A stretch of DNA of 30,902 nt from Gemmatimonadota bacterium (GTDB lineage: Bacteria > Latescibacterota > UBA2968 > UBA8231). Below the pieces are notes generated by a model. The model was not told the DNA's origin. It saw nothing but the letters and a program-made list of their open reading frames with translations, and made no database searches. This document shows positions 26,051-30,657 of this stretch, piece after piece. The stretch covers positions 1-30,902 of the forward strand of contig JAYOYH010000051.1 in NCBI GenBank assembly GCA_038153405.1, in the 5' to 3' direction. The translations under genes and the position numbers were made by a program. The number at the start of each line of letters is the position of its first letter. The first letter of the stretch is position 1.

Positions 26051-27337
26051 TTAGCTCCTGTCATAGGGGCGCACCAGCCCCAGCGCTTGGCGGTTGAGCT
26101 CGAGTCCAAAACCCGGCGTATCGGGCAGGGTGATATAGCCGTTTTCCGGCAGCGGCTCGTTGGTGAACACGGCGCCGAAGTTGGGCTCGATCGAATCGCC
26201 CTGCTCGCTCATCATCATAAATTCGGCTAGGTTGATCGACTCAAAGGCCATGGCCATATAGTAGCCATAGACGCCGCAGCCGTGCGGCACCACGGCTACG
26301 CCCTGCGCATTGGCCTGTGCGACGACGCGCGAAAATTCCGTCGGCCCTCCCATCCACATGACGTCGGGCTGCAGTAGGCCGACGCCGGCTTCGATCAGCT
26401 GCTGATAGCCGTAGCGCGTGTACTCGTGCTCGCCGGTGGCAAAATACGCCGTCGTGCCCAGGCCTTCGAAGCGATCGGCCAGCTTGGCATGGGAAGCGTA
26501 GTCGTCGGGTATAAACGGTTCTTCGATCCACTTCAGATTAAACGGCATCAGCACGCGGGCCAGTTCGGCGGCGTATTGCAGGTCGAGCGCCATATAGCAA
26601 TCGAGCATGAGCGGAAAATCGGGGCCGACTTTTTCGCGCCAGTCGCCGATAAATTCCACGTTTTTGCGCATGCCCAGTGGCCCGTCGGCCGGGCCGTAGG
26701 GCAGGGGAATCTTTGCCCCAGGGAAACCGAGGTCCTTGGCCAGATCGGGCCGCGACGTGGTTGCATAAACCGGTATGCGCTGCTTGGTCCTGCCGCCCAT
26801 CAGGTTGTATACCGGCTCGCCGAGCATGCGACCGCACAAATCCCACAGGGCTAGGTCAATGGCGGATATGGCGTGCACGCCTAGGCCCTTTCTGCTGTAG
26901 TGAATGGAAGCGCGCCACATCTGTTCCCATATCACAGAGCGCTCTAGCGCACTGCGCCCTTCGACAAACATCGACAGGTGCTGCTCGATGATGTAGGCGG
27001 CCGCTTCGCCTCCCGTGCTCGCACCAATGCCCACGTGGCCGGCCTCGTCTTCGATCTCGACGATCACCGTCGGCACGCGCGCTACGCCCCAAGAGGCGCG
27101 CGAGCCTGCATACTGGGGATAGCGCGACATGGGGTTGGTAATGGGCGGGTGCGTCGTCACGTGATCCCATCCGCCGTCGGCGTCGGTCAAGCCGAGGATC
27201 CAGTGCGTGTCGGATGTATCGTGCACGTCGCTGGCGCCGTAGTCCTCGCTGCGCGATACGTAGGCGCGCACCTGGCGGATCTTTGGATGACGCGGGTTGG
27301 CAATTACATCTTCATTGGGTGCGATATACAGAGACAT
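26051..27337 (-). CDS. rhmD: L-rhamnonate dehydratase-like enolase-superfamily enzyme
   Basis: ITNPMSRYP, YSRKGL, KIPLPYGP, MLDCYM, WIEE, GEHEYT, QPDVMWMGG, VVPHG. Confidence 0.8.
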   Translation of the reverse strand: MSLYIAPNEDVIANPRHPKIRQVRAYVSRSEDYGASDVHDTSDTHWILGLTDADGGWDHVTTHPPITNPMSRYPQYAGSRASWGVARVPTVIVEIEDEAGHVGIGASTGGEAAAYIIEQHLSMFVEGRSALERSVIWEQMWRASIHYSRKGLGVHAISAIDLALWDLCGRMLGEPVYNLMGGRTKQRIPVYATTSRPDLAKDLGFPGAKIPLPYGPADGPLGMRKNVEFIGDWREKVGPDFPLMLDCYMALDLQYAAELARVLMPFNLKWIEEPFIPDDYASHAKLADRFEGLGTTAYFATGEHEYTRYGYQQLIEAGVGLLQPDVMWMGGPTEFSRVVAQANAQGVAVVPHGCGVYGYYMAMAFESINLAEFMMMSEQGDSIEPNFGAVFTNEPLPENGYITLPDTPGFGLELNRQALGLVRPYDRS

Positions 27338-27636: not shown

Positions 27637-29205
27637 TCAGAAAAAGCGGCTGTGCAGTCGAGCTTCTACGCCTTCGAATCCCAATATTTCGTAGCAGGTG
27701 CCCGACGTGCAGGCCAATCCCGAGCGCCGATGGCCGGCGAACAGGTTTAGATTGTGGTTGGTGCCTAGGTCGGCGTTGAGTGTGAGACCGCGCCACCACG
27801 TGGTGCCTGAGGGATCGGCACCGGTCGCCAGCACGTCTGTGCTGCGTTCGAGCTGCAGGGAGGCGGAAATTCCCGAACTGCGCTGAATGCCAACATTGAA
27901 GTAGAGATTGTTATAGGGGTATTTTGAGGAGCCAAAACGCCGATCTACAGTTTGGAATTGCGCGTCGAATTCGAGCGTATATTGTGGGTCGGCAGCCCAG
28001 GTCCACAGCGCGCCAAAGACGCGGTGTCGCAGGTCTTCAAGAATTTGGTTGCGGGTAAAATCGACGAAAAACTGTGCTTCCCAAGCTGTGCCAATCGGCG
28101 AGTGCAGCTGCAGAAACAGTTCGCGCAGGCTGCGGTCGTCGGATTTGCCGGGATCGCGTTGACGCACGGCGCGCGTCCAGTTGGCGGTGAGGATGTGCCC
28201 GCCGCTGGATGCATAGCTCAACTCGGCCTGAAAACCGCGCTCGTCGTCGGCCAGCAGGTCGTGCGTGATGCGGTTGAGCAGGTGGGCGGAGTGCTCGCGA
28301 ATCAGCGGAGGCGGATTGTTGATCTGGGTAAGGGCGAAATCGAAGTAGTCCTTGAATTCAGCGCTCAGTCCCCAGGGTCCGCTCGTCATCGCCATGGATA
28401 GATAGAGCGCGCGACCCCGTTCGCGGTCCAGTGATAGAAAATGCGCGAGGTCGGGGTCGCGCTGGGCATATTCGCCATAGATCTCGGCATTGACTTCGGA
28501 TAGGCCGAGCGCTGCCAGCAAACGCGCGAGGCGCAGGCGCGCGCTGAGGGCTGCACCCACTTCGCGTTGAGCGCCGATATCGTAGTGCAGCAGGCTCAGG
28601 CCGGTGTCCAAATATCGACGGGGTTGGAGCGTCAGCGCGCCGCCCTGGATGGTACCCTGACGCCGTTTAATTCCCCGGAGTCCAGGAGGGAGGTCGGAAT
28701 TAACCGGGGTGCCGCGCAGGAGCTGTAGGTTGCCCCACGACTTGCTGTAGCGCACGTGGAGTCCGTCGAGGTCGCTGACGATTTGATAGCGCCGGCGCTC
28801 GCCGCGCTGTTCGGTAATCACGCCGGGCAGTTCGAAAGCGCGCACGAGCAGGCCGCTGCCTACAATGGTGTAGAAATGGCCCAAGGTCGCCTGCAAGGGA
28901 CCGCGGCGATAGGACGCGAAGCGCTGGAGAATTTCGCCGTAGTTGCGGCCTGCTACGCTCGAGCCAAAGGCTTCAGTGCGAATGCCAACGCGAAGGTTGT
29001 TCAACGCGTAGCCGAAGTTTAACTGGTGGTATAGAGTGCGGAGGTCGTCGGGTTCGCGGTCGGGCATATTGCCGATCTGTAGTTCGCTCAGACTCGAAAG
29101 TTGCAGTTGAGCCTGAAGGGGAACAGCCAGGAGTGCGGCGATAAAGAGCAGAATCGATGGATTGAGCGGGCGCGTGGAGCACATCGCACTGAATAGGGAA
29201 CGCAT
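27637..29205 (-). CDS. DUF6029-like outer-membrane protein with C-terminal CxxxxC
   Basis: Signal peptide (VPLQA-Q); LGHFYTIVGSGL, NNPPPL, DERGFQ, RRSGLACTSGTCY..GFEG; ends RFF. Confidence 0.7.
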   Translation of the reverse strand: MRSLFSAMCSTRPLNPSILLFIAALLAVPLQAQLQLSSLSELQIGNMPDREPDDLRTLYHQLNFGYALNNLRVGIRTEAFGSSVAGRNYGEILQRFASYRRGPLQATLGHFYTIVGSGLLVRAFELPGVITEQRGERRRYQIVSDLDGLHVRYSKSWGNLQLLRGTPVNSDLPPGLRGIKRRQGTIQGGALTLQPRRYLDTGLSLLHYDIGAQREVGAALSARLRLARLLAALGLSEVNAEIYGEYAQRDPDLAHFLSLDRERGRALYLSMAMTSGPWGLSAEFKDYFDFALTQINNPPPLIREHSAHLLNRITHDLLADDERGFQAELSYASSGGHILTANWTRAVRQRDPGKSDDRSLRELFLQLHSPIGTAWEAQFFVDFTRNQILEDLRHRVFGALWTWAADPQYTLEFDAQFQTVDRRFGSSKYPYNNLYFNVGIQRSSGISASLQLERSTDVLATGADPSGTTWWRGLTLNADLGTNHNLNLFAGHRRSGLACTSGTCYEILGFEGVEARLHSRFF

Positions 29206-29331: not shown

Positions 29332-29823
29332 ATGAGATGTAACGGAATTATTGTGCTGTGTCTGTTGATGGGCAGTATCGCCAGAGCGGAGAATGCACCG
29401 CAGCTAGTGTTGGAGAATATAGACGGCTCGACGTTTTCGCTGGCCGAAGCGCTCAAAGAGGGCCCCGTCGTCTTTGATTTCTGGGCGACGTGGTGCAAGC
29501 CCTGCATTAAGGGGTTGCCCAAGATGCAAGAGTTGGCCAGCGCTTATGCAAAACGGGGCGTGCAGGTGCTGACGATCAACATCGATGGCCCGCGCAACCG
29601 ACCCAAGGTGCGTCCCTTTATGAGGCGCTATAAGATCGATCTACCCGTTTTGCTGGACAATACAAACGAAGTATTGCAGTTGTTTCATCTGGCGGGTGTA
29701 CCCGCTTCGATGATCATCGCGTCCGATGGGACGGTATTTTACAAGCACGAGGGCTACCGGTCCGGTGACGCGGACAAACTCAGGAAAAAGCTGGACGAAT
29801 TATTGGCTCTTGAGGAGGAATAA
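29332..29823 (+). CDS. TlpA family thiol:disulfide reductase with signal peptide
   Basis: DFWATWCKPC, INID, cis-Pro GVP; ARA signal cleavage; AGGAG RBS. Confidence 0.92.
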   Translation: MRCNGIIVLCLLMGSIARAENAPQLVLENIDGSTFSLAEALKEGPVVFDFWATWCKPCIKGLPKMQELASAYAKRGVQVLTINIDGPRNRPKVRPFMRRYKIDLPVLLDNTNEVLQLFHLAGVPASMIIASDGTVFYKHEGYRSGDADKLRKKLDELLALEEE

Positions 29824-29826
29824 ATC

Positions 29827-30657
29827 ATGCGTATAGCACGTGTTGTCCTAGTGTCGGCTCTGCTCACCACGCTGGCTTTTGCCCAGTCTCGGGTGGGCGA
29901 ACCGGCCGCTGATTTCACGCTGTTTTCGCTGGATGGAGATGCAGTTTCGCTGAGCGATTTTAGGGGGCAGGTCGTGTTGATTAACTTCTTTGGCTTCAAC
30001 TGACCTTTCTGCATCGCGGAGGCCGCGAATATAGAAACCATTTGGCAAGAATTTGCATCCGAACACTTCCAAACCATCGGCTTAGACATGTATGACGGCC
30101 GCGCCGATCAGGTGCGGATCCAGTTTAAAGAGAATACCGAAACGACCTATCCCCTGCTGTTAGAGGCGAGTCCGATCGGTCCGCTATACGGCCTCGGGCG
30201 CGACTTTTATATGGTGATCGACCATCGCGGAATTGTGCGCTATCGCACGACCGATGGCGTCGGTCTGGGATCGCGCTTTGATGGAGTGAGCATTCGTGCG
30301 GCGATTGTAGAGGCGCTGGATGAACTGGCCCAGGAGCAGGCAGCCAGCACTTCCGTGGTGGAGGAAGAGGCCGTGCCGGATGCCTTTGGGTGGATAGTCA
30401 ACTATCCCAATCCGTTTAACGCCAGCACGTCGGTTTACTTTAATATAGCTCGAGCGGAATCGGTTACGTTGGATATATACGATGTGCGGGGGCGTTTGGT
30501 GCGTCGTCTTTGGGAAGGGCCTTTGACTGCCGGCGAGCACCAGATGCGCTGGGATGGGCGCGATGATGGAGGATTTGCCGCGGCCACCGGTGTTTATCTG
30601 AGCTGGCTACAATCCGCCAAAGAGACCCACGTGCAGAAAATGCTGCTGCTGCGCTGA
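29827..30657 (+). CDS. Selenoprotein: exported redoxin (TlpA/peroxiredoxin-like, U-P-F-C) with C-terminal FlgD-Ig/T9SS-like domain, 276 aa
   Basis: GAGGAGG RBS, ATG 29827, signal peptide, VGEPAADFTLFSLDG..VSLSDFRGQVVLINFFGFN-TGA-PFC; TGA 30001-30003 is in frame with ORF 30088-30657; NYPNPFN...WDGRD...GVYL...KMLLLR tail. Confidence 0.88.
30006..30037 (+). promoter_or_regulatory. Putative bacterial SECIS hairpin
   Basis: TTTCTG/TAGAAA lower stem, TCGCGG/CCGCGA upper stem, G-containing apical loop about 16 nt after the UGA. Confidence 0.72.

Follow-up and report, generated by a model that had tools for sequence, protein, structure and literature searches.

Results

Three adjacent genes and a concealed reading frame

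Close to one end of the window (the whole stretch of DNA analysed, 30,902 nucleotides) lie a gene for a predicted DUF6029 outer-membrane beta-barrel, a divergently oriented gene for a TlpA-like redoxin and, directly behind the latter, a second redoxin gene that contains one in-frame TGA (Table 1). The TlpA gene stops at 29821-29823 and the ATG of the second redoxin follows three bases later. The strong ribosome-binding site of the original prediction is found as GAGGAGG, and its overlap with the end of the TlpA gene makes translational coupling likely; GAGGAG is kept in four of four relatives.

From this ATG one frame runs to a final TGA stop at 30655-30657, as had been proposed, and the sole in-frame stop before it is the TGA at codon 59, in the context INFFGFN-U-PFC. 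Aligned with the neighbouring TlpA, this TGA falls on the first Cys of CKPC, again as proposed. The table-11 open reading frame list gives only 30088-30657 (189 aa) and the protein database likewise holds the 189-aa call, so that the expected truncation by gene callers is borne out.

Table 1. Features of the redoxin gene and its partners, in positions of the window.
Feature	Position	Strand	Remarks
Whole gene, predicted 276-aa selenoprotein	29827..30657	+	signal peptide, UxxC redoxin, linker, T9SS/FlgD-type C-terminal domain
Shine-Dalgarno-like GAGGAGG	29812..29818	+	inside the final codons of the TlpA gene
Predicted signal peptide, aa 1-19 (AFA/Q)	29827..29883	+	by eye
TlpA/ResA-type thioredoxin-fold domain	29893..30321	+	PF00578 54.6 bits, cut-off 26
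In-frame TGA, codon 59	30001..30003	+	very likely read as Sec in U-P-F-C
bSECIS-type hairpin	30006..30037	+	upper stem 30014-30019/30023-30028, loop AGG 30020-30022, lower stem 30006-30011/30032-30037
C-terminal sorting domain (NYPNPFN ... QKMLLLR)	30382..30654	+	T9SS type A-like / FlgD_ig
TlpA-like redoxin, module partner	29332..29823	+	WATW-CKPC at 29494-29505, with cis-Pro, likely periplasmic
DUF6029 predicted outer-membrane beta-barrel, module partner	27637..29205	-	divergent from TlpA; PF19494 66.7 bits
Invariant CxxGxC (CTSGTC) hairpin	27694..27711	-	loop before last barrel strand

Contigs from four other runs span the TGA, and these contigs (as distinct from raw reads, and amounting to about three independent samples, given that X5 and X6 seem to stem from a single data set) carry no other letters at 30001-30003, where other bases had been proposed as a ground for doubt. 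The runs that hold the window are estuary and marine, with no RNA data set listed among them. Summed over four same-genus relatives, which are kin and not independent, codons 1-58 are identical in 96 comparisons, synonymous in 78 and non-synonymous in 58, and the corresponding figures for codons 69-160 are 174, 134 and 60. Based on these counts, there is coding constraint on both sides of the TGA.

The read-through protein scores above the Pfam cut-offs for AhpC-TSA, Redoxin and FlgD_ig, and its AF2 model (mean pLDDT 92.3) shows two domains predicted with confidence and a loose linker between them. The signal-peptide pattern was also recognized by eye in relatives and in forms with Cys at codon 59. 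Two same-genus genomes (L028/L083 and L029/L084) have approximately 370 extra residues between redoxin and tail, in a frame of about 640 aa. Redoxin copies are split in G015 (L091) and G059 (L130/L131), where assembly errors are possible.

Probable selenocysteine at codon 59

The in-frame TGA very likely encodes Sec in a thioredoxin-like enzyme. Recoding is supported by the pairing of TGA with Cys among homologs, by selA, selB and selD, by a bSECIS-type hairpin and by the way in which codon and machinery go together from genome to genome, all of which uphold the UxxC selenoprotein of the original prediction. The TGA could instead be a true stop, either in a broken gene or between a 58-aa peptide and a 189-aa protein, or it could stand for Trp or Cys in another code. 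We consider this very improbable. The 189-aa gene calls agree with a stop, yet the homologs argue for another role of this codon. After removal of duplicates (L055-L058 and one L034 row), 44 DNA matches spanning codon 59 were reduced to 39 distinct stretches; L049-L054 match the tail only. The codon is TGA in 32 of the 39 and Cys in six, the remaining row (L070, GCC) being misaligned. TGA sits exactly at the position of the attacking Cys in these 32 stretches, down to about 30% identity. One of the Cys copies is a close paralog that adjoins a TGA copy.

Across 69 database homologs, coverage of the read-through protein never exceeds 76%. Full-length Cys forms that share its architecture (266-274 aa, with CPHC or CSHC) share 32-36% identity with it (E 2e-38) and occur in genomes whose proteins are named Balneola or Gracilimonas by their sources (Balneolaceae-type). 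All 21 family genomes that carry the TGA gene have selA, as do all three distant genomes with TGA forms; selA was found in none of the seven genomes with Cys forms, although some genomes are incomplete and this count is no proof of absence. The attacking position is taken by Sec, and by Cys where selA was not found. In family f3 (L133, L134), a second UxxC TlpA-like gene (GASW-U-GxC) adjoins tandem redoxin copies.

Two further host genes bear on the meaning of TGA. The host SelD has TGA at its known Sec site (CGU; L015:1465-2529, plus strand, on G000:C77), as does the host BCP peroxiredoxin (DDTPGU; G000:C3:51244-51630, minus strand), and in each case a hairpin follows. These are likely two further selenoproteins of the host, and they argue against a true stop at codon 59. 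Reading of TGA by another code is at odds with close relatives, in which the same gene terminates with TGA after KMLLLR, so that TGA still stops.

The Sec machinery that had been expected in the genome was recovered in part. selA, selB and selD all score above the cut-off in the host genome (G000). A tRNA-Sec was not found in the host assembly, which is 93% complete (the Rfam search scored 150 of 387 candidates), a result that would favour the true stop. Against this, tRNA-Sec exceeds the cut-off in three of five relatives searched (G002, G006, G015), and the two cases in the same genus lie at contig ends. The runs holding the window contain contigs with the anticodon part of a tRNA-Sec at zero mismatches and a flank about 92% alike, which are not assignable to the host genome. 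Their depth is 8.8 in X5 (window 7.3-9.1) and 5.6 in X7 (window 4.1-5.5), a match that faintly hints at a tRNA-Sec on an unbinned contig. Candidates that ARAGORN labelled 'SeC' under relaxed settings, one of them close to selA on C29, were rejected as not credible tRNAs.

A bSECIS-type hairpin after the TGA

According to a review, bSECIS elements have a loop of 3-9 nt with a G in its first two positions, an upper stem of 4-16 bp, a distance of 16-37 nt from the UGA and a minimum free energy of -7.5 or lower (PMC13188914). The hairpin here, with its 3-nt AGG loop, 6-bp stem, distance of 16 nt and -14.7 kcal/mol, agrees with all four criteria. Across 22 family sequences, whose relatedness inflates the score, 93% of cells are paired and four cells are compensatory; none of 500 shuffles paired as highly, and slid controls were 30-52% paired. 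Five stem codons are identical in four of four relatives, and other codons change synonymously about one third of the time. In 19 Cys stretches, at most three of six positions pair in the hairpin register.

By folding energy alone, the hairpin does not stand out from chance (z -1.4, 19/200 shuffles), and resampled codons reproduce the 6-bp stem in 4-17% of draws for a given sequence. More distant Sec forms do not share this register and have one to four of its six pairs. A loose motif scan for further SECIS-bearing genes was discarded, its 157 hits being mostly spurious. We are nevertheless highly confident that SelB would read this hairpin and insert Sec at codon 59.

The redoxin domain

The domain shows the extended thioredoxin fold, with (C/U)xxC placed where a helix begins, and its top Foldseek matches are 2ls5, 3kcm and ResA (TMt ~0.82-0.86 for the latter two). 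TlpA/ResA-type thiol-disulfide oxidoreductases have a cis-proline facing the active site. In the redoxin family, Pro occurs in none of 38 sequences at the column of TlpA's GVP, and this absence is unusual for a protein-disulfide reductase. The peroxiredoxin motif PxxxTxx(C/U) is also absent, given that in FGFN-U-PFC the Sec stands at the Thr position of BCP. Lacking both cis-Pro and the peroxiredoxin motif, the family may act on something other than an ordinary protein disulfide. The read-through protein reaches the cut-off of none of the NCBIfam selenoprotein models. We suspect that the redoxin works like a TlpA-fold enzyme, yet we do not file it as TlpA.

The C-terminal tail and its predicted export system

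The tail scores above the cut-off for TIGR04183 (29 bits, cut-off 23) and just under that for Por_Secre_tail (PF18962; 25.3 versus 27), and the tails of the Cys forms reach 33-49 bits. The host genome has 99 FlgD_ig matches, 91 of them over the cut-off, and a profile of the redoxin tail matches it 96 times, in 94 cases at a C-terminus. One of the two other matches is likely the true FlgD, on C53 near fliF. A flagellar hook-cap FlgD was rejected as the identity of the redoxin tail, for which FlgD models are far under the cut-off. No FliF match was found in G009, although the redoxin gene is present there.

Among the 94 C-terminal tails, Tyr is the last residue of 44 (often ...AY) and Lys or Arg that of 42, and these endings may be two sorting signals. 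The same Sec redoxin is also seen with a short 'SWGxVK/SGVKALFR' tail or with a DFDGDG-repeat tail that is dockerin/EF-hand-like by eye (loci L043-L045, L064-L065; L046, L047, L128, L132), and its C-terminal tags look interchangeable.

SprA and PorV score above the cut-off in five of five genomes (G000, G009, G015, G022 and G024). A C25 peptidase is encoded directly upstream of porV, in the position of porU, and from this domain we infer a PorU-like gene in the host. GldM and GldN were found in Parabacteroides (G061) and were not found in the host (G000), its relatives G009, G015, G022 and G024 or the Balneolaceae-type G213. The export system hence does not appear to be a canonical T9SS; the gene content points to a T9SS-like system with an unrecognized or diverged motor. 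According to the literature, further FCB phyla may also have T9SSs (PMC11285876). We think it probable that the Sec signal peptide and the C-terminal domain (CTD) would carry the protein over both membranes via SprA/PorV, and that a PorU-like sortase may cut and anchor the tail. Surface targeting by the tail, suggested at the outset, thus stands as a prediction, consistent with the TIGR04183 and FlgD_ig scores and with the SprA, PorV and PorU-like genes. Aside from this, sprA and selA lie ~6-7 kb apart in G000:C29, G009:C1 and G015:C1, which is probably plain synteny.

The DUF6029 barrel and a possible thiol relay

The module formed with TlpA and DUF6029 was absent from the original prediction and is the more interesting part of the locus. 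AF2 models DUF6029 with confidence (pLDDT 91.6) as a barrel made almost wholly of beta-strands, in which a Cys pair lies on the hairpin before the last strand. In most DUF6029 barrels, the CxxGxC pair provides the only two cysteines. By the usual topology of such barrels, its loop would be an outer loop, and a single pair placed there may lack reach to the periplasm. A PDB sequence search with the barrel gave no real relative, and its Atlas matches are DUF6029 clusters only. In G019 (L120) DUF6029 is in three pieces, where an assembly error is possible. Elsewhere in the window, 26051-27337 (minus strand) encodes a protein over the NCBIfam cut-off for L-rhamnonate dehydratase, which is 95-97% identical in same-genus relatives and much more conserved than its neighbours.

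Our overall reading, to which we give nearly an even chance, is that a 276-aa Sec enzyme (U-P-F-C) of thioredoxin fold would leave the cell through T9SS-like export and act on its outer face as a selenol/thiol oxidoreductase, recharged by the neighbouring TlpA via the DUF6029 loop. Based on gene linkage and conserved cysteines, we tentatively propose the whole relay as follows. A DsbD-type membrane protein would donate electrons to TlpA, which would pass them to the CxxGxC of the barrel; this would recharge the Sec59/Cys62 pair at the surface, whose substrate outside the cell would be a disulfide or another form of oxidised sulfur. All five genomes searched encode a DsbD_TM protein. For a Cys-form barrel and its redoxin domain (L196), complex prediction gave 0.02 and 0.30 against a mark of 0.32; the controls did not fold, and these scores count neither for nor against the relay.

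Among 36 family genomes, which are kin and not independent, 20 have both DUF6029 and the redoxin, 15 have neither, one has the redoxin only and none the barrel only. Of 21 family genomes, 18 have TlpA, redoxin and DUF6029 next to one another, with varying gene order and orientation (separate in two, untestable in one). The three genes also adjoin in four distant MAG loci (L059-L062). Their linkage is not strict: in G015 and G028 redoxin copies are found at a distance from the barrel gene, and in G038 and G042 no DUF6029 match accompanies the redoxin. These cases, together with the lack of cis-Pro, would suit an exported Sec redoxin that acts alone at the surface and is recharged by environmental thiols, its linkage reflecting shared regulation only. 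Such an enzyme could be an oxidant or metal scavenger, or could resemble HBP35, which has thioredoxin activity and binds hemin (PMC2907840). We consider an independent role unlikely, given the near-perfect co-occurrence with DUF6029 in the family and an adjacency that persists through several rearrangements, and the missing peroxiredoxin motif also speaks against it.

Beyond the family, DUF6029 occurs in 39 of 151 genomes sampled from the phylum of Parabacteroides. We examined 35 loci of other lineages (32 of those 39, plus three MAGs). CxxGxC is found near the C-terminus of the barrel in all 35, TlpA lies within 2.5 kb in 32 (29 by motif, three by tblastn) and a further CxxC protein is encoded in 28. 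Many of 42 DUF6029 neighbours scanned with Pfam are Omp28-type or have a T9SS tail. A link of the module to PG2172-PG2175/Omp28 is conceivable, but found no confirmation in the literature searched.

The main rival to the relay is a structural disulfide in a barrel with a transport role. The Sec redoxin would still be real, and the module would serve barrel biogenesis or transport, with TlpA and the redoxin forming or guarding a disulfide in the DUF6029 loop and the barrel exporting or importing polysaccharide or a CTD protein such as PorA. DUF6029 has been likened by HHpred to Wzi-like polysaccharide porins (PMC9603273), and PorA is said to reach the surface without T9SS machinery (PMC7712824). 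Small CTD proteins without CxxC adjoin DUF6029 in several Bacteroidota loci, and in genus g19 all six loci have TlpA and DUF6029 with no such redoxin within ~7 kb. The one CTD neighbour searched had no PDB match at E<=0.01, which weighs against this reading. A structural disulfide is also hard to reconcile with the exported CxxC proteins of varied folds (Omp28, redoxin) in the 28 distant loci; these varied partners, together with the Cys/Sec swap in the family, suggest repeated catalysis rather than one-off folding. We therefore hold the structural and transport role to be rather unlikely and retain the relay as our working model.

Discussion

The means by which Gram-negative bacteria maintain thiol enzymes at their surface in the reduced state are an open question in the field. 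It is possible, if doubtful, that TlpA, DUF6029 and a secreted (seleno)redoxin constitute a thiol relay through the outer membrane that is widespread and so far undescribed. It would be a counterpart of DsbD, passing periplasmic electrons via the barrel cysteines to enzymes at the surface, in which the Sec versions would be exported by a T9SS-like system without recognizable PorM/PorN. The protein described here is a candidate bacterial selenoprotein that leaves the cell, from a family truncated in the database entries examined, and DUF6029 gains a testable role. Cys forms are found in Balneolaceae genera that have been cultured, and Parabacteroides has the barrel with TlpA, so that the relay is open to genetic tests that need neither selenium nor the uncultured host.

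UxxC redoxin selenoproteins have already been catalogued (PMC13188914). They share with the gene here the PF00578/PF08534 fold, Sec as the first residue of UxxC and an in-frame bSECIS. The present gene differs in its signal peptide, T9SS-type tail and fixed partner barrel and in its lack of cis-Pro. The text of that review has no match for 'secret', 'T9SS' or 'FlgD'. Our search of the accessible literature yielded neither a T9SS-tailed or secreted selenoprotein nor a TlpA-DUF6029-redoxin module; selenoprotein lists in supplementary files may nonetheless include the redoxin family.

A precedent is HBP35 of Porphyromonas gingivalis, a cargo of the T9SS that has thioredoxin activity and occurs in a surface form (PMC2907840). 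Like the redoxin here, whose location is predicted, HBP35 (PDB 5y1a) combines a thioredoxin motif with a CTD; it differs in having Cys rather than Sec, a 344-aa chain in the PDB and hemin binding. 5y1a is not among the best 60 of 113 PDB matches of the redoxin family profile, and it is matched weakly (E 7e-5) by a DUF6029 neighbour in Parabacteroides.

With T9SS type A cargo (PMC11285876), the redoxin shares a ~90-aa Ig-like C-terminal domain, a Lys in the last strand and an N-terminal signal peptide, and its host shares SprA, PorV and PorU-like genes. By contrast, the host lies outside Bacteroidota, GldM and GldN were not found, and FlgD_ig gives the tail a higher score than Por_Secre_tail does.

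ResA, TlpA and CcmG are periplasmic reductases that are fed by DsbD/CcdA and act inside the envelope. The redoxin here has their fold, and a DsbD-type protein is present, whereas the locus adds a second redoxin with an outer-membrane export tag and a linked barrel with a cysteine pair. Thus, UxxC redoxins as such are known, and it is the putatively secreted Sec form and its module context that appear to be undescribed.
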